This document shows, in pieces, positions 11,092 to 46,506 of a stretch of DNA of 57,468 nucleotides. The position numbers and the translations under genes are program-made. The notes beneath the pieces were generated by a model that was given only the letters and a program-made list of their open reading frames with translations, searched no databases and was not told the origin of the DNA. The stretch is taken from assembly GCA_964590515.1 (NCBI GenBank), contig CAZPZD010000004.1, positions 23,223 to 80,690 on the forward strand, given 5' to 3'. Every line of letters begins with the position of its first letter. Positions within the stretch are counted from its first letter, which is position 1. The stretch comes from an uncultured Anaerolineaceae bacterium (GTDB taxonomy: Bacteria; Chloroflexota; Anaerolineae; Anaerolineales; E44-bin32).

Positions 11092-12354
11092 TCAGTGCAG
11101 CTGGATTCTCCTGGTTACCCAGCCGACCCCGCCCTGGCCGGTCATGACTTGGGCGGCCAGCGTATAGCGGCCCTGCCGGCGGTAGTGATTTGAGAGGACG
11201 GGGATGAACTCGTCCGAGCGCCAACGACGGACCGACTGGGATCGGCTCCGAAAGAGGTGACCATCGTAGTCCCAGTCCACCTCGAATCCCGTCAACGCTT
11301 CAGAATCTGACTCTCCAGCAGCGATCAATCTAGCCTCCACTTGCCGGCCCGTGACCCGAATCCGGATCCTGGGCTTCGCCGCCGGTGCGAGCGGAATCGA
11401 GGGATCTTCCCAGACGCCGAAAGTTCGCCGGGCAGGCTGCAACAGCAAGCGGCGGCGGGTGGTCCCGATCGCCAGGCGGGAGATGTCGCAGGCCAGCCAA
11501 CGCCGATCTAGCCGGTCCGCCACCACCGCGGTCGTTCCAGCGCCGCAGAAGAAGTCTGCGACCAGTCCGCCAGCCTGGCTCGACGCCCCGACGATTCGCT
11601 CGAGCAGCGCTTCCGGCTTCTGGGTCGGATAGCCGGTCCGCTCGCCGTGCATCCGAGCGACGACCGGGAAGTACCACCAGTCTTCGGGCACCTTACCGCG
11701 GCTCAGATCCGGACGTTTGCCGAAACCGGCCTTGGGGGAGCTGGCAAAGGTCTTGGCAGTAGCTGGGTGGTAGGGCATCCGCACCGCATCGGCATTGAAG
11801 GTGTACGCCTTCGACTTCGTATAGACATAGATCGTGTCATGCTTTCGCTTGAATCCGCTGCGAATCGGCGAAGGCCCGTGGTAGACCCAAATGATTTCGT
11901 TGAGTAAGCGATCGGATCCGAAGATCTCGTCCAGCAGCACTCTGCCGTAGGCCGCCGCGTGCCAATCAAGATGCAGGTAGAGAGTCCCAGTCGCGGCCAG
12001 TAAGCGGTGCATGAAGACCAAACGCGGGTAGAGCATGCTCAGGTATTCGGGCAATCCAGACCAGGTGTCTGTGAATCCGCTTGTGGTCTGCCAGGCATCT
12101 GGCCGGCGGGAGTCCTCGACCAGGCCCGTGCGGGCGCGGTAGCGCTTGCCGGAGCGGAACGGTGGATCGGCGTAGATCAGATCGACCTGCCCTTCAAACT
12201 CGGAGAGCAGGGTTGCCATCACGCCGAGATTGTCCCCCAAGATCAACCGATTGGGATTGGAGACCGAGCTGCCTGCGCTCGGGACGACCAGGTTGGTTTG
12301 CAGCAGCGGGCTGGGTGCTGGCGGATCAGACGATTTCCCCGACCACTGGAGCAT
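11092..12354 (-). CDS. Site-specific DNA amino-methyltransferase (N6-A/N4-C, beta class, Mod-like)
   Basis: IYADPPF catalytic motif precedes the DFFCGAGT SAM-binding motif; YPTQKPEALLER; start uncertain. Confidence 0.9.
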   Translation of the reverse strand: MLQWSGKSSDPPAPSPLLQTNLVVPSAGSSVSNPNRLILGDNLGVMATLLSEFEGQVDLIYADPPFRSGKRYRARTGLVEDSRRPDAWQTTSGFTDTWSGLPEYLSMLYPRLVFMHRLLAATGTLYLHLDWHAAAYGRVLLDEIFGSDRLLNEIIWVYHGPSPIRSGFKRKHDTIYVYTKSKAYTFNADAVRMPYHPATAKTFASSPKAGFGKRPDLSRGKVPEDWWYFPVVARMHGERTGYPTQKPEALLERIVGASSQAGGLVADFFCGAGTTAVVADRLDRRWLACDISRLAIGTTRRRLLLQPARRTFGVWEDPSIPLAPAAKPRIRIRVTGRQVEARLIAAGESDSEALTGFEVDWDYDGHLFRSRSQSVRRWRSDEFIPVLSNHYRRQGRYTLAAQVMTGQGGVGWVTRRIQLH

Positions 12355-16036: not shown

Positions 16037-19000
16037 TCAAACCTCCACCAGGTGCACCTCTCCGTCTGCGTCGAGGAAGCACAGCATGCCCTGCGGCGCC
16101 ACGCCCAGGATGCTCGCGGCCGAACGGACATAGCGCTCGACTTGCTTGCGGTGCCGCTCGACTGCGGCGGCCAGGTCAGCTTCGCCCTGCAGCTTATCGG
16201 TCTTGAAATCCACGATTTTCCAACCCCGCTCCGCGCGCCACAGGAGGTCAATCTGGCCGCTCTGTACCTGGCCGGCGGGATCGAAAGCCGTAAACGGGAC
16301 CTCGCGCTGGGCGCCCTGAGCCGCGCGGATCTCTTCCCACAGCGCATGCGCCGCCAGGCGGCCGAGCATCTCTGTAGATTCCGCGACCGCAACCTGGCGC
16401 TGACGCGGGTCCACCAGTCCGGCTCGGAAGGCTTCGTTCTCCATGAACCTGTCATATCCGGCGCTGCCCGGCATCGCAGAACGTTGGATGGCAGCGTGCA
16501 CGATGCGTCCAACGGCGGCCGCCGGGGCGCGGCGGCCGCTACCGGTCGCCCGCCAGGTTCGCTCCGGCTCCTCGTCCAGATCAAGATCGATCTCTTCCTT
16601 GGGCGGAATCGATACCACCCGGTACAGGGGAGGCTCACTCGAGTCCGGCCAGGCGGTGAAGCTGCCGGCCTGGGCCCACCGGCGCCGTTCGGAGTCCGGG
16701 GCAGTCCAAGCGCGCAGCAACTGGCCGCCCGGCAACTTTACAAGCACCTCCTGGCCGACGCCCTCGGCCAATGCTTTCGGATCCATATCCATGAGCTCGA
16801 GGATCCGCTCCATCCAGCCGGCGGTGCTCCAAGCGCCGCGAGTCTGGCTCAGATGACCGCTGACAATCAACCGCTCCCGCGCCCGGGTGGCCGCCACGTA
16901 CAACAGCCGATCCTCCTCGGCCTGTGATTGCTCCGCATCCAACGCCCGTGCAAGCCGATAGGCGGTCGGCTCGCCAACCAATAGGTCCATGGCGGCCGCC
17001 GCGCCGACCTCCTCCATCAGGTATACCGGCTGGGCGCGCCGGGGGCTGCTCCGCGAGGCGTCGGCCAAGACCACCAGGCCAAACTCCAAGCCCTTGGCCT
17101 TGTGAATGGTCATCAGTTGAAGTGCACCGCCCTCGCCGGCCGGTGCTTCGCCCTCCCGCGCGCCAGCTTCGCGCAACACCGACAGATACTCTAGGAAGGC
17201 TCCCACATTCACCAGCGCGCTTGCCTGGGCGTCGTCGACCAGCTTGTCCAGGTTGCGCCACAGCCGGGCGTGCGAGCTGGCGAGCACAGCCCGCCAGTCC
17301 AGTCGCCCGACCAGGCGGCTGATCAGCTCAGCCACCGGGAGCCGCTCGGCCAGCGGGTGCAGTTCATCCAGGGTGGCCTGGGCGCGCCGGGCGGGCGCCA
17401 GATCGTGCGGTTCGAGTAACTGCTCGGCCTTCGCAAGCGCCGCCTGCAGCGGGAGGGTTTCACCGCCGCTGACCCGCAACCGGTACAGCCCGGGATCGCT
17501 GAGTCCGACGGCGGGCGAGCGCAAGAACCCGGCCAACGCCAGGTCGTCGCTGGGATCAGCAATTGCACGCAGGGTATTGACCAGGTCGCGGATCTCCGGT
17601 CGATCGTAGAAGCCGCGGCCGGCGACCGTGACGAACGGGATACCGGCCGCCTCCAGCGCCGACTCGTACGCCTCGAAACCGGCCGAAGCGCGAAACAGCA
17701 GCGCCACCTCGCCCCAGTCCCGGATCACCCCGCTCCCCTGCAACTCGACCAGCCGGTCGGCGAGGGCGCGGGCGGCGGCGGCCCGTCCCTGCTCAGCCCC
17801 CTGCCCGGTGCCGAGCACGATCTCGAGGTGGGGGCCTGCGCCGGAACCGGACGGTTCGGCGCGGTCGGCGGTCAGGGTGGTATAGGGGACCTGGTACAAA
17901 GCAACGCTGTCCTCGCGGCCCATCAATGGACCGACGACGTCGTCGAGCGCTGAGAGCAGCGGGGCGTGCGCCCGGAAGTTGAGCTCGATCTCAGTCGCCA
18001 GGCCGCCGCCGGCCTGCACCTCCTGCCGCTTGCGCCGGAAGACGCGCACGTCGGCCCCGCGGAAGCGGTAGATACTCTGGCGGGCGTCGCCGACCGCGAA
18101 CAGGCACCCGGAACGGTCCCCGACCAAAGCGTCGATGATCCGCCGCTGGCGCTGGTTGGTGTCCTGGAACTCATCGACCAGCACCGCCTCCAGCCGCCCC
18201 CGCCAGCGGTCGCCGACGTCAGCAGTTTCGAGCAATGCCAGGGCGCCGGCCTCCAAATCGTCGAAGTCGAGCGCCAGGTGGGCGTCCAGTGCGCGCCGGT
18301 AGGCGAAAAGTGCCCGATCAAAGAGGGTCTTTAACCGTTGAAGTTGCTCCGCCCAGATCGCGTCGGTTTCGGGCGCTGGCGGTGAATCCTTGGCATTGGC
18401 GCCGCCGATCCAGGTGTTGAGATGCTCGTCGTAGAGATCCTGCAGCGTGTGGATGACGGCGCGGGCTCGGCTTTTGGCGCTGCCCCCGACCTTCTGCAGC
18501 GCCTCGCGCCGGATGGTGAAGAGCACGCCGCAGGTACCCATCAGGTCTCCCGCGTTGAGAGTGACCTCCAGCTCGACCCACAGCTTGAGGAGCCGTGCGG
18601 CGCGCGGGGCAAGCGAGGGCCCGGCGTCCACCTCCATCTCCCCGCCATCCGCCAGCTTGCGCAGCATCTCGATCCCCCCCACGACCCGGCCCAGCCTCAC
18701 GAAGGATTCGACAGCCGCCAGCAGCGTGCGGTTCAGGTTTTCAGCCGAATCGCCGCCCAGCAGTTCGGCGGTCTCGAGGCGGCTTTGCAGCAGGCGTGAC
18801 AGTACGGCCGCCAGTTGGCGAGTCGAGAAAGCTCGGAACAGTTGAACGGCCTCCGGATCGCCGGCGGCCCAGGCCAACGCCTCGGCGACCGCCTGGGCCT
18901 TGAAGGTCAATCCCAGACCTTCATCGACCACCACGAACCCAGGGTCTATTCGCGCCTCGGCCGGATGGGAGCGCAGCACCTCGGCGCACAGACTATGCAT

Positions 19001-19324
19001 GGTGCCGATCCGGGCGGCGTCCATGCGCGATTCGATCTCGAGCCAGCGCAGCCGCTCTTCGCCTTCCGCGGCCACGGCCAGATCGCTGACCGACCCACGG
19101 ATGCGGTTGCGCATCTCGCGGGCGGCCTTCTCGGTAAAGGTGACGGCCACAATCTGGCGTTCGTTCAGCCCCCGGGCCAGCAGGTGGACGTAGCGGGCGA
19201 CCAGCGTACGGGTCTTGCCAGTTCCGGCGCCGGCAGTGAGCAGCACGTCACGCTCGAGCTCGGTGGCGGCTTGATGTTGATCGAGAGTGAGATCGAACGG
19301 CGCCAGCGAATCCATCCCGGTCAC
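16037..19324 (-). CDS. addA: ATP-dependent helicase/nuclease subunit A (UvrD helicase plus RecB-type nuclease)
   Basis: AGAGTGKT, TFTEKAAREM, VDEFQDTN, VGDARQSIYRFRGAD, TIHKAKGLEF, YVAATRA; nuclease GQIDLL..VDFKT. Confidence 0.92.
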   Translation of the reverse strand: MTGMDSLAPFDLTLDQHQAATELERDVLLTAGAGTGKTRTLVARYVHLLARGLNERQIVAVTFTEKAAREMRNRIRGSVSDLAVAAEGEERLRWLEIESRMDAARIGTMHSLCAEVLRSHPAEARIDPGFVVVDEGLGLTFKAQAVAEALAWAAGDPEAVQLFRAFSTRQLAAVLSRLLQSRLETAELLGGDSAENLNRTLLAAVESFVRLGRVVGGIEMLRKLADGGEMEVDAGPSLAPRAARLLKLWVELEVTLNAGDLMGTCGVLFTIRREALQKVGGSAKSRARAVIHTLQDLYDEHLNTWIGGANAKDSPPAPETDAIWAEQLQRLKTLFDRALFAYRRALDAHLALDFDDLEAGALALLETADVGDRWRGRLEAVLVDEFQDTNQRQRRIIDALVGDRSGCLFAVGDARQSIYRFRGADVRVFRRKRQEVQAGGGLATEIELNFRAHAPLLSALDDVVGPLMGREDSVALYQVPYTTLTADRAEPSGSGAGPHLEIVLGTGQGAEQGRAAAARALADRLVELQGSGVIRDWGEVALLFRASAGFEAYESALEAAGIPFVTVAGRGFYDRPEIRDLVNTLRAIADPSDDLALAGFLRSPAVGLSDPGLYRLRVSGGETLPLQAALAKAEQLLEPHDLAPARRAQATLDELHPLAERLPVAELISRLVGRLDWRAVLASSHARLWRNLDKLVDDAQASALVNVGAFLEYLSVLREAGAREGEAPAGEGGALQLMTIHKAKGLEFGLVVLADASRSSPRRAQPVYLMEEVGAAAAMDLLVGEPTAYRLARALDAEQSQAEEDRLLYVAATRARERLIVSGHLSQTRGAWSTAGWMERILELMDMDPKALAEGVGQEVLVKLPGGQLLRAWTAPDSERRRWAQAGSFTAWPDSSEPPLYRVVSIPPKEEIDLDLDEEPERTWRATGSGRRAPAAAVGRIVHAAIQRSAMPGSAGYDRFMENEAFRAGLVDPRQRQVAVAESTEMLGRLAAHALWEEIRAAQGAQREVPFTAFDPAGQVQSGQIDLLWRAERGWKIVDFKTDKLQGEADLAAAVERHRKQVERYVRSAASILGVAPQGMLCFLDADGEVHLVEV

Positions 19325-22300
19325 CTAGCCCCAGCCCCCCGGCTGATAGCGCCAGCACCAGGCGGCTGCCGGACAATACTCCGGGCAGCCGGCCGGCGGA
19401 GGAATCGGCGGAAACCGGCCGGCGCTGACGCCTTCGACGACGCGGCGGACGTGGGCTCGAGCGGTTGCATAGGCTGCGGCCGGGCCAACCTCGAGGTCTC
19501 CCTCCTCCGGTGCACGGTAGTTGCTCAGCCGCAATGCGCCGCGCTCGGCCGCCAGGATTGCCCAGTAGAAACCGTCCACCACCTGGCCCAGCCCGAGCGC
19601 ATCCTGCGCCGCCAGGGCATACAGGGGCAGCTGTATCCGGCGGCCCTCGTTGAGCTCGGCGGGGTTGAGCCCGCTGCCTCCGGTCTTGTAATCGATCACC
19701 CGCAGCCCGCCGTCCGGCCGGCGGTCCAGACGATCGACCACCCCGCGCACCCGCACGACCCGCCCATCCAGCTCCAACTCGAGCGGGGGCTGCTCGTCCA
19801 TGCCGAAGGCCAGTTCGAGCCCGATCGGCACCCATTCGGGGGCCTGCTCGGCCAGCGCCCGTACGGTCTGGCGCAGCGATTCGGCATGCTGGGCGCGCTC
19901 GATCGCCCACAGCGGGGTCGGCCGAAAGCCATGCCGCTGCGGGGCTCTATCCAGGATGGGATCGAGCACCTGGTCGAGCGACCGCAGCACTGATTCGGTG
20001 TCGGCAAGGTTATCGGCGGTACGGTAGGCGGCTTCCAGGACCTCGTGCAGAACCGATCCGAGCTGCGCGGCGTCGAGGCCGGGCTTCGGAGGCTCGCGGA
20101 GCTCCAGGCCAAGCAGATGGGAGGTGAAAAACATGTGGGGGCAGGTGCCGTAGGTCTCGAGCCGGCTGGGACTCCACAGGTGGTCGGCGTTGAACCTCTC
20201 GGCCAGGCTTTCCGCCAGACCGGCCAGGCTGCCATCGTACGGGCCCTCGGCTTCCCGCTGGCTGCGCGCTGCCAACACATTCCGGCTGTGCTGCAGCTCG
20301 GCCCAGCGCTCACGATGCGATTTGAGCAGCGAGGCCGGCATGCCACCCCGGCGCACACCCCAGAACAGCAGCTCCTGCGGGGATCCGGCCTCCTGCAGTG
20401 GCCGCGGATCTTCTGGACGGATCCGGCGGGGCGATCCGCTGAGCATTCGTTGAACCGCTCTCCAGAAGGGCGAGGGTTCCCATGCCTCCCCGTCGTCGGC
20501 CAGGTAGGGGCGGGTCAACAGCAGCCGGGCGTCGGCGCGAGTGACTGCCTGGTAAAACAGTCCGGGCTGTTCTCGACCCAAACGCGACTCGAGGCCGAGG
20601 GCGGCGCGGGTCTCTTCGTCCAGGAACGGATCTTCGCGCTCGACCGCAGGCAGCAGCCCCTCCGAGAGCCCCATCACGACGACTGCCTGATGATTACGAC
20701 CGGGGGCCTCGAGCAGACCCAGGACGTTGACGGCCGGACCATCCGACAGCCGCTGGCGGTCGGGGGTCGTTTCGACCGCGCTTCGCAGCTCGTCGAGAAA
20801 CTCGTCGTAGCTGAGCTTCTGTTCTCCGGTGACGATCTCGCCCCACAGCAGGGCGCGCAGCGTCTCGCGCAGGCGCTCGAAGGCTGTGTGCTCGCGGTCG
20901 GCGCCGGCGCGATCCGAGTCGGCGGCGGTCCGTTCCGGAAAACCCAACTCATCGAGCAGATCCTCCAGCCACTCCACCCACTGGGCGGTTGTTCTCGGCT
21001 TGGCCGGCGCCAGCCGCTTCGCCAGAGTCTGAATGGCCTCGAGCAGTCGAGCAGCCGTTGCGCCCTTGGGTGGAGCGGAGGGCGGGAGTCCTTCCTCTAG
21101 CGTCTCCGCCCTTGAGTCCGGCTCGGCCCGCACCAACCGGGTGAGCGCCTCCTCCCACTGGTCGAGGCCTTCGATCACCTGGCCGGCATGGCTGGCGGCG
21201 TCCAGCGCAAGCGCGTCGACCGCCCCTAGACCAAAGGAAGCCAGATCGAAGTAGGGCGATCGGACAGCCTGGAGTGTCAGCCGGCGGGACCAATTCGAGC
21301 GACCGATCTCGAGCAGATCCAGCAGCGCCGAGACTGCCGGCGCCTGGATCAACGGTTCGCCATGGGTAAACAGGAGGACGATGCCGAACTCGGCGGCCGC
21401 GCGGCGCAAGAGTGAACCGTACCGCATTGCATTGGGCGCGATCACGGCGCAATCCTCCAGCCCCAGGTGGTCCCGCACCAGGCGGGCTTTAAGCCAGCGC
21501 ATCGCTTCGCGCGCCTCGTCGGCCGGGCTGCGGGCCTCGATGAGTTCGATCGCTTGCTCCGGGTCGAACGGTCGAATATCCAACTCGAACAGGGAGGCCT
21601 CCAGCTGGATAAGCGGCTCAGGCAGTTTGGGGAGCAGCTGGAGTCCATCGACTGCCCCTGGGGTGAGCGTGCTCCGCGATTGCAGCGCTTCGATCGAGGC
21701 ATCCGGCAGAGCCCGGTGCACCCTGTTCAGGGTTTCCACGAAGCGCCTGTCTACGATGCGCTCCTTCACCCGGGTGCCAGGCAGGGCCACGATTAGCCGC
21801 TCGACCTGGCCGGACAGCGCCGTGAGGGCCTCCAGCTGGGCGGCCTCGAACGAGTCGAAGCCGTCGACGGCGATCAGCGGCATGTCGGTCATCAACCCCG
21901 GGAGCTCGTTCAACGCCCCGATCGCCAGATCGCCGAGTCCTTCCCGATCGGTCCACGGGATTGCTGCCAACCGGGCCTCGTAGTCTGCGTATATGCGCGC
22001 CAGCTCGGCCAGCGCCGTGCCACGTTCAAGGGATCGCGCCAGCGCGGCGACCGCATCGGGTCGAACCCGCCCTCGCTTCAACTCGGCGATCGCCCCTCCG
22101 ACCACCTCCAGTAACCCCGGCGTCCGGACGATCGGTTGATAGAACGGGAGCTTTCCGTCGGCCTCCAGACGCCGCAAAGCCAGCCGAATCAGGCGCTGGC
22201 GGGCGGGCTCCGGCGTGACCGCCACCGGCCGGCCGGCGCGGGCCAGGATCTCCTGGAATAGATCCCCAAACGTGCCCACGCTCACGCCGAGCGCGCCGCC

Positions 22301-22516
22301 GGCGGCGGCGATGCGGCGGCGGAAGGCCGCAACTTGAGTGCGGTCGGGCAGCACGGCCCAACGCGGCAGGATCAGACCGGGTTCGTCGACCAGCAACTCG
22401 ATCAAGCGCTGGGTCTTGCCGCTGGCGGCCGGCCCCAGCAGGATGGTCGCGTTGGAGGTGGCGTTCGGGTCAGACAATGGACCTTTCAACCGCGGGAGGG
22501 GGGCTACGGCTCTCAC
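19325..22516 (-). CDS. addB: ATP-dependent helicase/nuclease subunit B with Fe-S nuclease domain
   Basis: GPAASGKT, IAVDGF, SPSRLETYGTCP, RGVVDRLD..IDYKTG, QLPLY, CPEYCPAAAWC. Alternative TTG start at 22477 with a GAAAGG RBS. Confidence 0.88.
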   Translation of the reverse strand: MRAVAPLPRLKGPLSDPNATSNATILLGPAASGKTQRLIELLVDEPGLILPRWAVLPDRTQVAAFRRRIAAAGGALGVSVGTFGDLFQEILARAGRPVAVTPEPARQRLIRLALRRLEADGKLPFYQPIVRTPGLLEVVGGAIAELKRGRVRPDAVAALARSLERGTALAELARIYADYEARLAAIPWTDREGLGDLAIGALNELPGLMTDMPLIAVDGFDSFEAAQLEALTALSGQVERLIVALPGTRVKERIVDRRFVETLNRVHRALPDASIEALQSRSTLTPGAVDGLQLLPKLPEPLIQLEASLFELDIRPFDPEQAIELIEARSPADEAREAMRWLKARLVRDHLGLEDCAVIAPNAMRYGSLLRRAAAEFGIVLLFTHGEPLIQAPAVSALLDLLEIGRSNWSRRLTLQAVRSPYFDLASFGLGAVDALALDAASHAGQVIEGLDQWEEALTRLVRAEPDSRAETLEEGLPPSAPPKGATAARLLEAIQTLAKRLAPAKPRTTAQWVEWLEDLLDELGFPERTAADSDRAGADREHTAFERLRETLRALLWGEIVTGEQKLSYDEFLDELRSAVETTPDRQRLSDGPAVNVLGLLEAPGRNHQAVVVMGLSEGLLPAVEREDPFLDEETRAALGLESRLGREQPGLFYQAVTRADARLLLTRPYLADDGEAWEPSPFWRAVQRMLSGSPRRIRPEDPRPLQEAGSPQELLFWGVRRGGMPASLLKSHRERWAELQHSRNVLAARSQREAEGPYDGSLAGLAESLAERFNADHLWSPSRLETYGTCPHMFFTSHLLGLELREPPKPGLDAAQLGSVLHEVLEAAYRTADNLADTESVLRSLDQVLDPILDRAPQRHGFRPTPLWAIERAQHAESLRQTVRALAEQAPEWVPIGLELAFGMDEQPPLELELDGRVVRVRGVVDRLDRRPDGGLRVIDYKTGGSGLNPAELNEGRRIQLPLYALAAQDALGLGQVVDGFYWAILAAERGALRLSNYRAPEEGDLEVGPAAAYATARAHVRRVVEGVSAGRFPPIPPPAGCPEYCPAAAWCWRYQPGGWG

Positions 22517-23436
22517 TCAGGTGCGTGCAAGTCGGAGCGGATCGGATACTCATTCGGGAAGCACAGGCCACGGTACTCGCAGTGGGAACAGATGCGCGGG
22601 TCGTCGACCCGTCCGAACTTGGCTTTGTCCAGCGGGATATTCTTCTCGACGTCTCGACAGTATTCGTACATCTCCTGAGTCTCGGCGCGGACCTGGATTC
22701 CAAAGTGGTCCAGATCCAACGCGTTGAAGGCCTCTTCCACCTCCTGGTAGCGCGGATGCAGGTAGGCAATGGTCGGCACCACTTTTTCCGCCCCGACCTC
22801 GAAGTGGTAGGAAGCCCAGGCCGAGTAGCCGAGCAACTGCTTGCGGTGCTTAGCGCGGTCTGTCTTGCCGGTCTTCCAGTCCAGGATGTGGAAGTGGTCG
22901 ACCACGGGGAACAGAAAGTCGACCTTGAAGTAAGCCTTGAGGCCGTTCAAGCGGGTCTCGCCATAGCCGGGCGGTTCGATGATCCACTCGCCGCTCGTGT
23001 TGATGGCCTGCTCGACCAGCCAGCGATAGCGGTCGCTCTCGAGCAGGTTTTCCAGACAGACCTGCACCTTGGGATAAAGATCCTCCTCCGTCACCGCCTC
23101 CCGTGTGCCGTAACAGACCTCTTGAAAGCTATTCGACCCGGCATGATGCCTGGCTTCGCGGAAGGCGGTATCGAAGAACATGCTCCGGTCGATATCCTGG
23201 CTGGTGAGGCGCAGCCGGTTCAGCAGCTTCTGGATGATGTCGTGCGCCACGCTCCCGATCTCCAACGGAATCGAGCTCAGGCTCTTGAGCTCCTGAATCA
23301 GGCGCTTCGGCACCTCGGGGTCGTATTTGCTGTAGTACTGGTAGAAGTACTTGCGCTTGCAGAGGGAGAAGGTCTCGTAGCGGGTGGCTGACCAACCCAG
23401 GATGTCGGTGAAGGGGAACCGCTTTATCGGACTCAT
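22513..23436 (-). CDS. Stand-alone PD-(D/E)XK nuclease (RecB/Cas4-like, four-Cys Fe-S staple)
   Basis: WSATRYETFSLCKRKY, KVDFL..ILDWKTG, QLLGY, CSHCEYRGLC. Confidence 0.88.
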   Translation of the reverse strand: MSPIKRFPFTDILGWSATRYETFSLCKRKYFYQYYSKYDPEVPKRLIQELKSLSSIPLEIGSVAHDIIQKLLNRLRLTSQDIDRSMFFDTAFREARHHAGSNSFQEVCYGTREAVTEEDLYPKVQVCLENLLESDRYRWLVEQAINTSGEWIIEPPGYGETRLNGLKAYFKVDFLFPVVDHFHILDWKTGKTDRAKHRKQLLGYSAWASYHFEVGAEKVVPTIAYLHPRYQEVEEAFNALDLDHFGIQVRAETQEMYEYCRDVEKNIPLDKAKFGRVDDPRICSHCEYRGLCFPNEYPIRSDLHAPE

Positions 23437-25541
23437 GCTTCGATTGGATGAAACCGGTACTCTTCGCCCAGTGTTTGCCTGGCGGACGCATCGAAGAGGT
23501 CCCGCAGGTGATTGTCCATCGTGAAGTAGGTAACCTGCCAGCCGGCCTGGACCATATTGAGCACCTGCTCGACCAGCCGCTCCCGGCGCTGCCAGTCGGA
23601 GTGCTGGAAGGCATCGTCAAGCAGGATAAAGAGCGGCTGTCCGCCGGCCAGTCGGCTGGCGAACCCCATCCGCAGCGCCAGCAGCACTTGCTCGCGGGCG
23701 CCGGTGCTTAGCTCGGCCAGGTCGTAGTCGGCGGTCTTACTGCGTACAACGAGCCCCTCACTCTGCAGATCGATGGATTGATAACGCAGGGTCGTCTGTT
23801 GCAGGACCCGCTTGACGGCCCGGTCCTGCAATCCCATCCGGATCCGTTCATCCTCCTCGGCGGCAATCCGGGCGAGCACCTCCGTGACCCCGATTTGAGC
23901 CAGGATCCGGGCGGTCGTTTGCCGATATTCCGCGGCTTGCTCTTCTCGCTGCTTCCAGAGGTTGCCGAGGATCTCCTCCCACGGTCGATCGATGGTGTCG
24001 CCCGTCTCATTGCAGAGTGCCTGCTTCAGGCCCTGCAGCTCGGCGTTAGCGCTCGCAATCTCGACCAGGATCTTGTCCTTTTGGCGCTCCAGGCTGGCCG
24101 CCTCGGACTTACTGAACCCGGCTGCGGCTGGCCGCTTCGAATAGTCTGAAGGATCCACCCCAAGCCCCTCCAGCTGTAGGTCGAGATCATGCGCCTCGCT
24201 GGCAAGCGCCCGCCGCCGAGCGGCCAACTCGCCGAGAGCGGCCTCCCACTCGGGGCTCTCTAACTCCTTGCCCGTAATCGACGCCAACCCGCGTTTGATA
24301 TCGACCGCCAGCGTCGTCCGCTCTGCCCGCAGCCGCGACTGCTGTCGCTCGATCTCCTCGCCAATCGTGGCTGCCTTGCGAAGATCACTCTCCACGGCCT
24401 TTAGTTGTGCAAGGTCGGTCAGCTGCTCCCCGAATCGCTTTTCGAATCCTTTGACCAACTCCGAGCGATCGGTCTGGGCTGCCGATTTGGCGGTGATCCT
24501 CCTTAGGCGCCACACCCCGACGGCGCCCACAGCCAATCCGGCAACGGCCGCGATCGCTGCTGGGACCGACTGATCGAAGAGGGCCAGGGCTGCCGCCACG
24601 GCAATGGACAGTCCTGCCACGACCAGGATGAGCGAGGGCATCCGGGCATCTTGAGTTTCCGCACGCGGCTGCCAAAGTCCGACAGCCTGCTCGACCCAGT
24701 CAAAGTGCTGGCTTTCCGAACGCCTCTTGGCCAGGTCCTTCTCGGACTGTGCCTGCTCCCCATCGAGTCTGCGCAAGTCTCGCAGCAGCTGACTGAGCCG
24801 ATCGAGCTCGTCCTGCGGCAAGGCCTCGAGCGCCTTGTTCGCATTCTTCAAAGCCTGGTTCAAGAGGTAGGCCTGATGCCGCCTGGCCTCGAGCTGCCCC
24901 TTCAGTACGTTGTCGAGGTTCTTCAGCGTCAGCTCCAGCGAACGTATGCGGCTCAGAGAGACGCCGGTGTCGACCTGGTCGAGCAGCCTATCCAATCGCT
25001 GCAAGTCACCCCTGGCCTTGCTCCGATCCTGGAGCTCGCCCTTGTCGTGACCATCGATCTCACGGTCAACGACCCTGGCCTTCTTGACGGTCTCCTGCAT
25101 GGGCTCGAGGATGCGGTCAATCAAGTTCTCGTTCGATAGGACGGATTTCAACACGGCCCTATCGACCCCGCCGGCTGAATGCCGATCGAAGTCCAATTCG
25201 CCACCCTTGACGACAAGCAGCCGCCCCATGTTCGTGGGCAGGCCGGATTCACCTTCTGACCAGAAATCCTCCAACTTGCGCCGTCCGCTGGGGGTGAACT
25301 CAACGGCTCCGGGGGCTAGTCCCTTGACCCACACCTTTCCCTGCCCGATATTGCTCCGCAGGCCCCACTCCCCGGCGTAGCGGAAGAGGGCCCGGAGAAG
25401 GAACTCGACCAGATAGGTCTTGCCGGCCTCATTCCGTCCAAAGACTAGATTGAAAGCCCCCATCTTGAAGGTCATGTCTCCGATAGGGCCGAGGTTCTCG
25501 ACCGCGATCTGCTCGATGTAGATCCGCCTCTCAGGCAGCAT
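23433..25541 (-). CDS. Rad50/SbcC-like ABC-type ATPase with coiled coil and central hydrophobic hairpin (YhaN/SbcE-like)
   Basis: GRNEAGKT Walker A, LSTGAREQ signature, ILLDDAF Walker B; two hydrophobic helices mid-protein; no CxxC hook. Confidence 0.88.
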   Translation of the reverse strand: MLPERRIYIEQIAVENLGPIGDMTFKMGAFNLVFGRNEAGKTYLVEFLLRALFRYAGEWGLRSNIGQGKVWVKGLAPGAVEFTPSGRRKLEDFWSEGESGLPTNMGRLLVVKGGELDFDRHSAGGVDRAVLKSVLSNENLIDRILEPMQETVKKARVVDREIDGHDKGELQDRSKARGDLQRLDRLLDQVDTGVSLSRIRSLELTLKNLDNVLKGQLEARRHQAYLLNQALKNANKALEALPQDELDRLSQLLRDLRRLDGEQAQSEKDLAKRRSESQHFDWVEQAVGLWQPRAETQDARMPSLILVVAGLSIAVAAALALFDQSVPAAIAAVAGLAVGAVGVWRLRRITAKSAAQTDRSELVKGFEKRFGEQLTDLAQLKAVESDLRKAATIGEEIERQQSRLRAERTTLAVDIKRGLASITGKELESPEWEAALGELAARRRALASEAHDLDLQLEGLGVDPSDYSKRPAAAGFSKSEAASLERQKDKILVEIASANAELQGLKQALCNETGDTIDRPWEEILGNLWKQREEQAAEYRQTTARILAQIGVTEVLARIAAEEDERIRMGLQDRAVKRVLQQTTLRYQSIDLQSEGLVVRSKTADYDLAELSTGAREQVLLALRMGFASRLAGGQPLFILLDDAFQHSDWQRRERLVEQVLNMVQAGWQVTYFTMDNHLRDLFDASARQTLGEEYRFHPIEA

Positions 25542-26589
25542 AGATCACCGCCAGCGCCTCGCGCAGGATCTCGTCTTTAGTCGGCTGAGCTGGACCCCAA
25601 CTCCATTCGAGTGCCTCAATCCATTCCTGCACCTGACGGGCGATTTCGATCCGGTCCGCATCCTGGGTGTGATCAAGGGCCGAAATGTCCGGCCCCTCGC
25701 CGTAGAAAGCGAAGTCAGACATTGCCTCTTTGGCAACCTCTTCAACGGCCGCCCGATCGATCGTGTAGCCGACGACCCGCAGGCGAACCTGAACGCGGTC
25801 CTCCCATCCCTCGGGCAGGCCCCAATCTCGGATGCGGTCCTGCAGTTGATCACGCAGGTAGGCGGCCTCGTCAGCGACGGGCAGCATGACGACGGTCTCG
25901 TTGAAGTAGATCCGCGGGCCGTCGACCCGTTGGGCTGTGACCTTCCGGGTCTCTGGATCGAAGATCAGGAACCGGCGCAGGCCGGTCTCGTTGATATCGA
26001 GTGGGCAGGGGGAGCCGGAGTAGTAGACTGGCGGGCCGTCGAAAGGTGCGTGGATGTGGCCCAGCAGGCAGACCGCCGGGCTGGTCCCGGATAGGTCGCC
26101 CCGGGTGAGCGGCATGTAGACGCCGGGTTCGTTCGGATCGGCGCCGTGCAGGCCGCCGCTCCAGTCCCCGTGACTCACCAGCGCCCAGCGCCCCGGCCTG
26201 AGTTGATCCGCAAAAGGCGCCAAATGCTCGCCCATCGACGTCCCCGCCCTGTACGGTACCAGCAGCAGGTTGAAGTCGTCGCCGATGGGCCGCAGCGACG
26301 GCTCGGAAACCACTTCAAGGCCCTCGACGGCCAGCGTCCCGGCGGTCAGGTCGGAGTCGTGGTTGCCGGGGATTACGGTCACGGCCAGGCTGGCGGGGCG
26401 GACGGCGTTGTAGGCCTTCTCAAAATCGGCGAAGTTCTGCCGGGATTGATCGAACAGGTCGCCGGCAATGATCAAACCCTCGACGCCCAATTCGCCGCAC
26501 TGGCGCAAGATGTCCTCCAGCGCGGCGAATCGCTCGGGGTGTTCTGTTTGGGTCGTCAGGTGGAGATCGGCCGTCATGGCGATGCGCAT
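25531..26589 (-). CDS. Mre11/SbcD-like metallophosphoesterase nuclease (YhaO-like)
   Basis: ADLH, AGDLFD, PGNHD, SHG, GHIH, YSGSP motifs. Confidence 0.9.
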   Translation of the reverse strand: MRIAMTADLHLTTQTEHPERFAALEDILRQCGELGVEGLIIAGDLFDQSRQNFADFEKAYNAVRPASLAVTVIPGNHDSDLTAGTLAVEGLEVVSEPSLRPIGDDFNLLLVPYRAGTSMGEHLAPFADQLRPGRWALVSHGDWSGGLHGADPNEPGVYMPLTRGDLSGTSPAVCLLGHIHAPFDGPPVYYSGSPCPLDINETGLRRFLIFDPETRKVTAQRVDGPRIYFNETVVMLPVADEAAYLRDQLQDRIRDWGLPEGWEDRVQVRLRVVGYTIDRAAVEEVAKEAMSDFAFYGEGPDISALDHTQDADRIEIARQVQEWIEALEWSWGPAQPTKDEILREALAVIYAA

Positions 26590-26712
26590 GGCACCCCCAA
26601 TCGTATCGCACCCGCGGTCGGGCTAATCGCCCTCGGACGCGAGCCACCTGGAGTCTAATGCAGGATAGTGGAAAGGCTCAGCCTAGCACCGGCGAGCGCC
26701 AGCTACGAGCAC

Positions 26713-28845
26713 CTACTCGAAGGGTGGAGTCGGCGTCTTAGTGGCTGTTCCGCCCGAGGGGGTTGGAGAGGGGGTGACAGTCCCGGGCGTCGGCGAGAGG
26801 GTGGTCGTCGGGGTGCGGGTGGGGGTGGGTGTCCGACTCGGGGTGGGGGTTCGACTTGGAGTCGGGGTTCGAGTCGGCGTAGGAGTTCGACTCGGAGTTT
26901 GAGTGATCGTCGGAGTCGGTGTGAAGCCGGGGATCGCGGTGGAGCTGGGCGTCGGCGTCGCGCTGACGGTGCCAATGGCGGTCGCGCTCGGGCTCGGCGT
27001 CGGAGATAGGCTCAATGTTGGGATTGCCGTAGGGATCTCGCCGGTGAGAATGAGCAGGCGCTGTTCGGCAATGGTGCGCATCTCAGGATCCGGCATCTGT
27101 AGCTCCAAGATCCAATGGTAGTTTTGGATCGCATAGTCCAGAAGGTCCGTGGCGGCCTCTGCTGCCCGGGCGCGCAGTTCATACCCGCGAGAAGTGTCCC
27201 GTTCGCGAAGCTCCTGGCGCTGGTCCTGCGAAGCCAGGTCGATCGCAGCATTGGCACTTTCGAGAGCCTGCTGCAACTCGCCGAGATAGTAGTAGGCGTT
27301 ACCAAGGCCCAGGAAAACTTCTATCGTCTCCGGTCCATAGCGCCGAGCGTCGTTGAAATCGGAAAACCCGGTCTCATAGGCCCCAAGCTCGAGGTTGAGC
27401 CAACCCCGGGACAGGTACGCCGGGGCATACCGCTCATTGAGACCCAAAGCCCGATTCAACGAAGAAGAGGCAGCGGGCAAGTCACCGACCTCCAGCTGCG
27501 CTCGCCCGAGGTCGGCCCAGCCACGATGATCCTCGCCCCGATAGTTCAGGTAGGTGAGCAGTGGATCGATGGCTAGCGAGTATTGCTCGAGCCAGACTAG
27601 AGCCCGGCCAAGCATGAGATATCCGTCCAGGTTGGTGTGGTCGCCGGCGCTCCCTTCAATTGCGTTCTCAAGTGCCAGGTCGACCTTGCCCCCGTTGAAC
27701 TGTGCTTCGCTCAAGAGAATGTAGAGCAGGGGCTCGCGCACACCACGATCAACGGCAACTTGGAGGCCTTCCTCCATGGTTTTCCAGAGGCGCACCCGCC
27801 GCAGGAATTCGGCCTGGGCCGCGTAGGCAGGTGAGAAGCTCGGGTCCACCTCGAAGGCCTTGGCGTAGTCGGGCGGGAGGTCCTCGGCTTTCAGGTCTTC
27901 CGGCTGCCCAATCCGCAGCAGAGTGCGCTGCAGCAGGGCGTGGCCACGCCCCAGGTATGCCGGCGCGAACTCAGGGTCCAACAGGATCGCCCGGTCATAA
28001 CTTGCGATGGCTTGGCCGAGCAGGCTGCCCACCTCCGATCCCGACTCAACCGCGGCCAACATCCGAAGCGCTTCGGCTTTGAAGAAGTGAACATCCGGCA
28101 GAGCGTCGTCCAACTCGATCACCTGGTCGAAGAACGCTGCTGCGTCCGCCAGGTCGCCGCGGGTCAGCGCGGATACTCCGGACGAATACGCCTCGTATAC
28201 CGGGTGGGGGGTAAGCCCGTAGATCGGGGTGGGGGTCGGAGTTTGCGGAACGAAGAACAGGATAGGAGTGAGCGCAAACTCGGTCGGTATCGCGGTTCGG
28301 ATAATGCTAATCGAGGGCGGGACCGGAGTCTGGGTCGCGGTCGGGATTGGGGAGGTCGCACTGGATTCCGCTGCCTCCGGTGGCAGGGTCGGGGCCCGAG
28401 CCAGGCCCCGCGGCCGGGTGACAAAGGCATACACGCCGGAGACGAGTAACAGGACCGCAACCACTCCCGCGAATCCAGTCGCAACGAATCGCCAATTCAG
28501 GCGCAGCGCACGGCCGACCGCCGGCCCGCTGGATATTGACGCGGGGACCTGCCGCCGAGCGATCTTGACTGCCGAGGCGAGCTCTGATTCCAACGGCGGT
28601 CTGGCGCCCAGAATGGTGAGACCCCGGAGCACCGCCCGATTGGTGGGGTCTAGTTTGAGGGCCGATTCAAGGCAATAGATCTTCTCCCGCTTGGTATCGA
28701 CAGTCGAGCTCATCCATATCCAATACTCTACGACCCCAGAGTCTGCTTTGAGAAGGCGGGTCAACAGGCTTCGTGCGCGCACCCGGTTGCCGGACCGGGC
28801 TGCGGCAATAGCCTGCACGAGCATGCTGTCGTTGGATTGATCCAT
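26713..28845 (-). CDS. Single-pass membrane TPR protein with Pro/Thr-rich linkers and C-terminal tail
   Basis: N-terminal TPR-like hairpin, TM helix [23 protein letters not shown], multiple TPRs, (TP)n tail. Confidence 0.85.
26805..26900 (-). repeat. Coding tandem repeat, about 18-bp unit encoding [S/T]RTPTP
   Basis: Protein tail [31 protein letters not shown]; boundaries approximate. Confidence 0.75.
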
Positions 28846-29946: not shown

Positions 29947-30033
29947 GGAGAGGTAGCGTAGTCTGGCCTAACGCGCGCGCTTGGAAAGCGCGTGAGCCGA
30001 AAGGCTCCGTGGGTTCGAATCCCACCCTCTCCG
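29947..30033 (+). tRNA. tRNA-Ser(GGA)
   Basis: Acceptor GGAGAGG/CCTCTCC, anticodon arm cgcgc-TTGGAAA-gcgcg, long variable arm, GTTCGAATC T-loop, G discriminator; CCA not encoded. Confidence 0.96.
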
Positions 30034-30120
30034 CCTTCCAGCGGCACGGTATCCTGACGCAATCCCTGCGACGCCGCACTCTCCGGTCTCAACTCTGAAA
30101 AGTCGTCACGCGAGGCAGGC

Positions 30121-35530: not shown

Positions 35531-35624
35531 GGGGGTGGTTGGGCCCCGGTGGGCTCCTCGGTCTTCAAAACCGGTGGCGGGTCGTTGAACGGGCCGCGGT
35601 GGGTTCGACTCCCATCCACTCCCG
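35531..35624 (+). tRNA. selC: tRNA-Sec(UCA)
   Basis: 8-bp acceptor GGGGGTGG/CCACTCCC, 6-bp D stem with 4-nt loop, anticodon loop CT-TCA-AA, long variable arm, GTTCGACTC, G discriminator. Confidence 0.93.
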
Positions 35625-41856: not shown

Positions 41857-41929
41857 GCCTGCGTAGCTCAATTGGCAGAGCAGCGGACTCTTAATCCGTA
41901 GGTTGCAGGTTCAAGTCCTGCCGCAGGCA
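41857..41929 (+). tRNA. tRNA-Lys(CUU)
   Basis: Acceptor GCCTGCG/CGCAGGC, anticodon arm gcgga-CTCTTAA-tccgt, GTTCAAGTC; CCA not encoded. Confidence 0.96.
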
Positions 41930-41935
41930 CACGCC

Positions 41936-46413: not shown

Positions 46414-46486
46414 GCCCCTGTAGCTCAATGGACAGAGCGCCGGCCTTCTAAGCCGTAGGTTGCAGGTTCGAATCCTGCCGGGGGCG
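46414..46486 (+). tRNA. tRNA-Arg(UCU)
   Basis: Acceptor GCCCCTG/CGGGGGC, A20 present, anticodon loop CT-TCT-AA, GTTCGAATC; CCA not encoded. Confidence 0.95.
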
Positions 46487-46506
46487 CCTCGTTTCGCGAG
46501 GCGCTC

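Follow-up and report, generated by a model that had tools for sequence, protein, structure and literature searches.

An uncultured Anaerolineaceae bacterium (Chloroflexota, Anaerolineales; genome G000) carries, within the 57,468-nucleotide (nt) stretch of DNA analysed here (contig CAZPZD010000004.1 of assembly GCA_964590515.1, positions 23,223 to 80,690; the window), a minus-strand block of five co-directional open reading frames (ORFs), 26589 to 16037, encoding an Mre11-like nuclease, a compact Rad50-like ATPase, a free PD-(D/E)XK nuclease, AddB and AddA. We conclude that this block is probably a chromosomal double-strand-break resection operon of one genus, assembled from three separable modules, which replaced an alternative helicase–nuclease set found across the class. 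The genes of the block, their intact motifs, its single copy, its distribution and its site were read directly; the mechanism that we propose is borrowed from the known families of its proteins.

Three modules with intact active sites

The block begins with an Mre11/SbcD/YhaO(SbcF)-like metallophosphoesterase nuclease (25531..26589, minus strand, 352 amino acids (aa)), followed on the same strand by a compact Rad50/SbcE(YhaN)-like ATPase (23433..25541, 702 aa), a free PD-(D/E)XK nuclease with a four-cysteine staple that is ACE-like and that we label 'Cas4L' (22513..23436, 307 aa), AddB, with a helicase-like N-terminal part and a C-terminal four-cysteine nuclease (19325..22516, 1063 aa), and AddA, a superfamily 1A (SF1A) helicase with a RecB-type nuclease at its C-terminus (16037..19324, 1095 aa). 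In this order the junctions are an 11-nt overlap, ATGA, GTGA and a 0-nt gap; an earlier note, made from the sequence of this DNA, had described the five co-directional genes and these junctions, and the ORF coordinates bear it out. The tight packing is not conserved, since intergenic gaps reach ~160 nt in relatives' versions of the block. Domain, profile and fold matches agree with the identities that the note had proposed, namely AddAB, a YhaO/YhaN-type pair and a free RecB/Cas4-like nuclease, and the four nuclease sites and two four-cysteine staples that it had judged intact could all be located, the Mre11-like, free and AddB sites being invariant in aligned relatives.

AddA and AddB have, in adjacent genes, the architecture of AddAB: AddA combines SF1A motifs with a RecB-type nuclease, and AddB a helicase-like part with a nuclease bearing a 1+3 cysteine arrangement. 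AddB matches ADDB_N (1.1e-9) and PDDEXK_1 (4e-45) in Pfam and addB_Gpos (3e-38, under its cut-off), and AddA matches UvrD-helicase, UvrD_C and PDDEXK_1 in Pfam, with addA_Gpos (1.8e-78, again under cut-off) as its best NCBIfam match; the equivalog cut-offs for Firmicutes and alphaproteobacterial AddAB, which are lineage-specific models, were not reached (131 versus 903.7 and 264.6 versus 707.65 bits). The AddB nuclease site (D928, D942-Y-K944) is invariant in 21 of 21 aligned sequences, as is its four-cysteine set (C792/C1044/C1048/C1054) in the same alignment; the AddA motifs, D1026 and D1039-F-K1041, were read from the sequence alone. The block contains the only AddAB and the only SbcD-like match in its 90% complete genome, where a single sbcC-profile match sits elsewhere, far under its cut-off, and recA, recJ and lexA are also present elsewhere. 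In 3 of the 20 family loci (L110:14341-15348, L113:9858-10844, L118:6549-7712) AddAB has a gene for an ADP-ribosylglycohydrolase as its neighbour.

The Mre11-like protein matches Pfam Metallophos (4e-10) and, under that model's cut-off, TIGR00619 (1.3e-11); its five motifs (D8-H10, G43-D44, G75-N76-H77, H140 and G177-H178-I-H180) are invariant across all 16 aligned sequences. Its partner has a Walker A site at residue 35, a signature at 611 and a Walker B site at 639, and a profile search matched it to Rad50 heads. The AlphaFold model of the ATPase (predicted local distance difference test (pLDDT) 87.5, predicted template modelling score (pTM) 0.59) is SMC-like, with coiled-coil arms at ~170-290 and 350-570 and, as best fold match, Mre11-Rad50-Nbs1 at E 3e-12 but with a low template modelling score (TM) of 0.28. 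The protein lacks a CxxC zinc hook, having a single cysteine, at 510, and the locus has no TIGR00618 match; among 149 relatives a central CxxC occurs in one, and at least one central hydrophobic segment in all, with two in 99. Residues ~304-345 (window 24500-24640) form two hydrophobic helices at the coiled-coil apex, modelled at low confidence, which may anchor the protein in a membrane or, as a dimerisation hairpin, take the place of the hook.

This ATPase family is compact (~700 aa), with 536 representatives at 50% identity scoring below 1e-30 with its profile, and it diverges fast: identity between clades is 43-46%, versus 59-80% for the other block genes. At the place of the ABC ATPase H-switch (residues 669-678, window 23500-23530) the family reads T/S-M-D-D/N and then H, a pattern present in 131 of 149 relatives with the Met invariant, and the window protein reads T-M-D-x-H; this is an unusual active-site variant. 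AAA_27, the YhaN head domain, was not matched by the window ATPase, and one of three congener ATPases passes its cut-off, weakly; some sources label the relatives YhaN. Near-identical ATPases occur in two genera (L134 in G462 and L135 in G455; branch lengths 0.005 and 0.022), which may reflect recent transfer or mis-binning.

The free nuclease matches Pfam PDDEXK_1 (3.7e-17) and the PADLOC model Aga_Cas4-like_Nuc (2.3e-11). Its active site (D173, D186-W-K188, Q200/Y204) is invariant in 16 of 16 aligned sequences, and its four cysteines, predicted to hold an iron-sulfur cluster, are C26/C283/C286/C292, C292 being present in at least 90% of aligned relatives. The sole sequence matches in the PDB were the ACE1 entries 9IAB and 9IAC, at 17-19% identity, and ACE1 was also the top fold match (TM 0.65) of its predicted model (pLDDT 91.3). 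ACE1 enzymes are described as Fe4S4-containing endonucleases of single-stranded DNA that require an end, and numerous ACEs are reported from genomes without Argonaute (PMC12094033). A guide-making role for an Argonaute was rejected here, because a search of the 14 genus genomes, which are incomplete assemblies, gave no Piwi domain while its controls were positive. A role as a Cas4 of CRISPR adaptation was rejected too, as no Cas1 that could provide a cas1/cas2 linkage was found in G000. The free nuclease is ACE-like but belongs to no Argonaute system found here. A complex prediction for AddB residues 1-690 with the free nuclease scored 0.01, which counts neither way on binding. Relatives of the nuclease at 44-62% identity lie in records titled Dadabacteria and Acidobacteriota (L012, L023, L024), which suggests inter-phylum transfer or mis-binning.

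Distribution of the modules

The five-gene order is present in 7 of 14 genus genomes, on one contig in G000, G004 and G008 and pieced together from overlapping gene fragments at contig ends in G001, G009, G011 and G012. In G002 AddB and AddA alone are visible, on short contigs. G007 keeps the last three genes intact and, between the tetratricopeptide repeat (TPR) gene that borders the block and the free nuclease, the eroded 3' end of the ATPase gene (L011:5390-5447; 4.9 bits, versus at most -0.4 in 1500 shuffled frames); the Mre11-ATPase pair has therefore been deleted there.

Outside the genus the five-gene order was not found in the surveyed loci: any of the other four genes accompanies the free nuclease in 0 of 15 of its loci, the free nuclease is present in 0 of 20 AddAB loci (from 19 of 31 AddB-positive genomes), and a close relative of the ATPase (the close ATPase) adjoins AddAB in 0 of 10 loci in the rest of the family, several of them on short contigs. 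A four-gene Mre11-ATPase-AddB-AddA operon occurs in three of 400 class genomes (G038, G372 and G110), the three with the close ATPase. Of 54 metagenome loci, the majority of which are too short for a judgement, three have AddA or AddAB next to the pair (L045 and L048 among them), and a more distant pair follows AddA in G490 and G497. In a quick ATPase tree these cases fall on separate branches: this genus; G038/G372; G110; L045 and L048; and G490/G497.

Among 98 family genomes we counted AddB in 40 (39 plus G011), the free nuclease in 41 and the close ATPase in 17 (21 matches, of which four weak ones were dropped). AddB and the free nuclease occur together in 29, versus 16.7 expected; outside the genus, with no linkage seen, they do so 21 times versus 12.2 expected, and within a second genus in 11 of 28 genomes versus 7.5. 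AddB and the close ATPase occur together in 15 of the 98, versus 6.9 expected. The block thus consists of three separable modules, AddAB, a compact SbcEF-like pair and an ACE1-like free nuclease, that co-occur even when unlinked. On the co-conservation that the earlier note had raised, the five-gene order was found in the genus only, and the modules keep company across the family above chance.

An alternative set at the same chromosomal site

The block lies between the TPR gene (26713..28845, minus strand; Pfam TPR), the left border of a swappable site and itself outside the system, and rpsT (15945-15670, minus strand; Ribosomal_S20p), the right border. It occupies this site in G000, G007 and G011 (the TPR flank of G011, which is outside the TPR tree, was read directly). 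A comparison of this synteny in relatives had been suggested, and its outcome was unexpected: the site is empty, with the two genes adjacent, in six congeners (G001, G002, G003, G004, G008 and G009). AddAB blocks lie instead behind an NfuA-like/ATP-grasp region in G004, G008 and G012, and at a third site in G001 and G009. In these three genomes (L030, L031, L162) a gene for an NfuA-like Fe-S carrier immediately precedes the block; it may be a chance neighbour, or its product may act for the two Fe-S nucleases.

In the four congeners G005, G006, G010 and G013, all without AddAB, the TPR-rpsT site holds a different set on the opposite strand, H1-H2-N-RecJ. H1 (693 aa) is a degenerate UvrD protein with Walker A intact and H2 (731 aa) a UvrD protein, both devoid of a nuclease domain; N is a free PDDEXK nuclease of ~290 aa with a cysteine plus CxxCx5C, and RecJ is the fourth gene. 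The assembly of G006 breaks both H1 and H2. Among the loci examined (L149:10603-17979; L151:149-7563; L147:13060-19998; L153; L163-L175), the order H1-H2-N was kept in 16 of 17, with RecJ next in 14, and in four genomes of other genera the TPR gene is again alongside. H1 matches no NCBIfam model, and in PADLOC a generic helicase model only. In G005 and G010 the alternative set has an unrelated gene block as its neighbour (peptide ABC transporter, trimethylamine-methyltransferase-like and luciferase-like genes; L147:989-12718, L149:273-10262), so the site takes other cargo too.

Of the 98 family genomes 25 carry H1, and of 401 class genomes 237 do. H1 rarely coincides with the block's modules: AddB and H1 occur together in 3 of the 98, versus 10.2 expected, and the free nuclease and H1 in 2, versus 10.5 expected. 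Within the genus no genome of the 14 has both, nine having AddB, four the alternative set and one neither; in the second genus both are present in 3 of 28, versus 6.4 expected. One genome with both, G467, has an IS3-like transposase pair between addB and addA (L115:11195-12348).

Origin and history of the block

The five genes fit the codon use of their genome, lying at the 42nd to 96th percentile of 1229 long genome ORFs, and their GC content at third codon positions (GC3) is at or above the genome norm, so that a comparison of GC3 and codon usage proposed as a check for foreign origin gave no sign of it. AddB and the free nuclease of the genus each form a single clade, and the AddB tree roughly matches that of the TPR gene, taken as a host marker; the genomes with the alternative set fall within two separate host clades. 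We therefore rejected a recent foreign insert, given the native codon fit and the trees roughly following the host marker. The suggestion that the block may be an insert holds to the extent that its site is empty in six congeners and filled by another set in four; it fails for recent foreign DNA.

The history below comes from FastTree trees built on partial sequences. Its simplest reading would be that both sets were present in the ancestor of the genus and that one or the other was then lost repeatedly; the line leading to G000 is likely where the AddAB block entered the TPR-rpsT site. A plasmid search returned no full-length match (one match, at 10% coverage), and a viral search 20 distant matches, at 21-32% identity only.

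Proposed function and competing explanations

We read the block as a break-resection operon because a complementary distribution is known for RecBCD versus AddAB (as described in PMC6452273) and because an Mre11/Rad50-type pair shares the add operon of Bacillus subtilis, where addB-addA-sbcD-sbcC are reported in one putative operon (PMC1533848). B. subtilis SbcE is likewise reported to act in break repair (PMC2811018). By analogy with its family, the AddA motor would unwind from a DNA end, and the AddA and AddB nucleases would cut both strands to leave a 3' tail for RecA; the Mre11-Rad50-like pair, as an optional helper, may first clean blocked or hairpin ends, and the free nuclease, in what is the least certain step, may thread and trim the single strands that AddAB releases, in the way that ACE1 handles single-stranded DNA ends. 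In taking the TPR-rpsT site, the AddAB block would have replaced an H1-H2-N-RecJ set that likely does the same job.

Several observations weigh against this picture. The exclusion is not strict, since AddB and H1 are both present in G464, G467 and G484; the three class genomes outside the family with the four-gene AddAB operon (G038, G372, G110) all carry H1 too, and 36 of 98 family genomes have neither AddB nor H1 with the queries used. The free nuclease occurs without AddB in 12 of the 98 and AddB without it in 11, and because the genomes are incomplete assemblies and kin, the co-occurrence tests are inflated. Backbone support in the quick ATPase tree is weak, and G013 is weakly placed in the TPR tree (0.51). 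B. subtilis SbcC is reported to be non-epistatic with AddAB despite the common operon (PMC1533848), so co-transcription need not mean one pathway. A GAAC-N4-GTTC-like (LexA-type) box was absent from the 220-260 nt upstream in G000 and six other loci; SOS control was rejected accordingly, and the block is in this unlike lexA and recA, which do carry such boxes.

The clustering could instead be loose: an ordinary AddAB and two accessory nuclease modules, unrelated to one another, would have come together a single time, in the ancestor of the genus, and the work of AddAB would involve no part for the free nuclease. The absence of linkage outside the genus, between the free nuclease and AddB as between the close ATPase and AddAB in the rest of the family (in loci that are in part on short contigs), speaks for this, as do the deletion of the pair in G007 and the variable intergenic gaps. 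We nonetheless think it unlikely: AddB and the free nuclease still co-occur, unlinked, beyond the genus and within the second genus, the pair joined AddAB several times, and the block order is kept at three different chromosomal sites. The opposite extreme, a single stable machine of five subunits, all required, like archaeal Mre11-Rad50-NurA-HerA, could draw on the overlapping junctions in G000 and on the order kept in half of the congeners; it is very improbable, as G007 has its last three genes intact beside an ATPase reduced to a relic and the parts are unlinked or incomplete in most relatives. Of the dedicated end-resection machine that the earlier note had envisaged, the end-resection reading is thus retained and the fixed five-part machine is not.

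The note had also raised an anti-phage or anti-plasmid system, in which the ATPase would sense free DNA ends and the nucleases would destroy linear phage or plasmid DNA as in Lamassu, beyond the general degradation of phage DNA by AddAB and RecBCD. The distribution is patchy (close ATPase in 3 of 400 class genomes, block at three chromosomal sites), the ATPase diverges fast, ACE1, the closest solved relative of the free nuclease, acts in Argonaute defence, and Lamassu is reported to have evolved from SbcCD (PMC12663957). We found no positive support in PADLOC, which matched generic domains and no Lamassu model, in the neighbourhoods, or in the Piwi and Cas1 searches; the neighbours are housekeeping genes with no defence-island context, a transfer RNA (tRNA) scan of the window placed no tRNA gene at the block's borders, codon use is native, plasmid and viral matches are as given above, and the block is the only AddAB of its genome. 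The block is probably not a defence system, and this explanation appears to us a little less likely than loose clustering.

Break resection by the genus's AddAB kit could be part of a larger picture, which we advance tentatively and regard as possible but doubtful. In it, most Anaerolineae would have a fourth resection machine beside RecBCD, AddAB and AdnAB, a 'split' helicase–nuclease in which RecJ and a free Fe-S nuclease join two UvrD-like subunits that have no nuclease domain; the five-gene AddAB kit would have displaced it in place, and the ACE1-like nuclease would be a true third resection nuclease, revealing the repair role from which Argonaute-associated ACEs were recruited.

Upstream region and flanking features

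Upstream of the block, the region 26600..26657 (minus strand) contains two candidate -10 hexamers with a putative promoter role. TACGAT, proposed earlier as the -10 box, is indeed present at 26605-26600, and the same hexamer recurs in G011; its role is doubtful, because it abuts a GGGGG run resembling a ribosome site and the promoter scan lists no promoter there. TAGACT at 26657-26652, common to G000, G007 and G011, appears at least as good a candidate. For rpsT the scan gave a promoter-like site at 16002-15974 on the minus strand (TGGACA-17-TACAAT, 10/12).

Elsewhere in G000, two RecA N-terminal matches lie on separate contigs (C3:2-265 and C64:10017-10286), and both lexA and the recA on C3 have a promoter-like site that overlaps with a LexA-type box (positions including C28:21533). 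The window has four tRNA genes (35531-35624, 29947-30035, 41857-41930 and 46414-46488), one of which is tRNA-SeC, and an N6/N4 DNA methyltransferase gene at 11092-12354, downstream of argS, that is also found in G013.

Comparison with known systems

We found no description of either the five-gene arrangement or the alternative set in literature listings outside subscription journals and supplements. Cromie's 2009 survey of RecBCD/AddAB distribution reportedly may already note addAB-sbc clusters.

The block resembles the B. subtilis addB-addA-sbcD-sbcC operon, as described in PMC1533848, in that AddB precedes AddA, both nucleases are intact, AddB has its four-cysteine staple and an Mre11/Rad50-type pair is in the same operon. 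It differs in its pair, which stands upstream and is hook-less, of YhaO/YhaN rather than SbcCD type, in the insertion of a third, free nuclease, and in AddA and AddB that fall under the lineage-specific NCBIfam cut-offs. The pair itself is closer to SbcEF (YhaN-YhaO), going by the account in PMC2811018: an SbcD-like gene stands directly before that of an SMC-like ATPase with no CxxC and a hydrophobic central domain. The block ATPase, compared by description, is shorter (~700 aa), with arms much shorter than the described ~300-aa coils; it has no AAA_27 match and has T/S-M-D-D/N at the H-switch, no yhaM follows, and the pair is linked to addAB. It would thus work like SbcEF, as a compact subfamily, and not like SbcCD. 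With ACE1 and APACE systems the free nuclease shares its stand-alone PD-(D/E)XK form, D-DxK motif, 1+3 cysteine staple and fold; it differs in its low identity, its length of 307 aa and its place in a repair operon, in a genus where no Argonaute was found. Lamassu likewise sets a repair-derived SMC-like ATPase beside a nuclease, but the Mre11 nuclease of the block is whole, not split into LmuC and an effector, and no PADLOC Lamassu model matched. The locus gives the first genomic link found in this analysis between the poorly understood SbcEF-type pairs, an ACE1-like nuclease and AddAB.

The nearest likeness of the alternative set, by description, is to unfused operons of UvrD and a Cas4-like protein, which are reported mostly from Clostridiales, with one UvrD and in a non-defence context, and for which repair has been proposed (Hudaiberdiev et al., PMC5704561); there too a helicase gene adjoins a free pfam12705 nuclease, and the alternative set differs in having RecJ and a second helicase-like gene. 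Some 12% of bacterial genomes are reported to lack RecBCD, AddAB and AdnAB alike (PMC6452273). The alternative set is a testable candidate for a missing resection pathway across a bacterial class. The TPR-rpsT locus offers a natural swap experiment, in which the site holds the AddAB kit in some close relatives, the H1-H2-N-RecJ set in others, and is empty in the rest. Taken alone, the five-gene operon is a genus-level rearrangement of known repair parts; the displaced 'split' set is the more novel lead.

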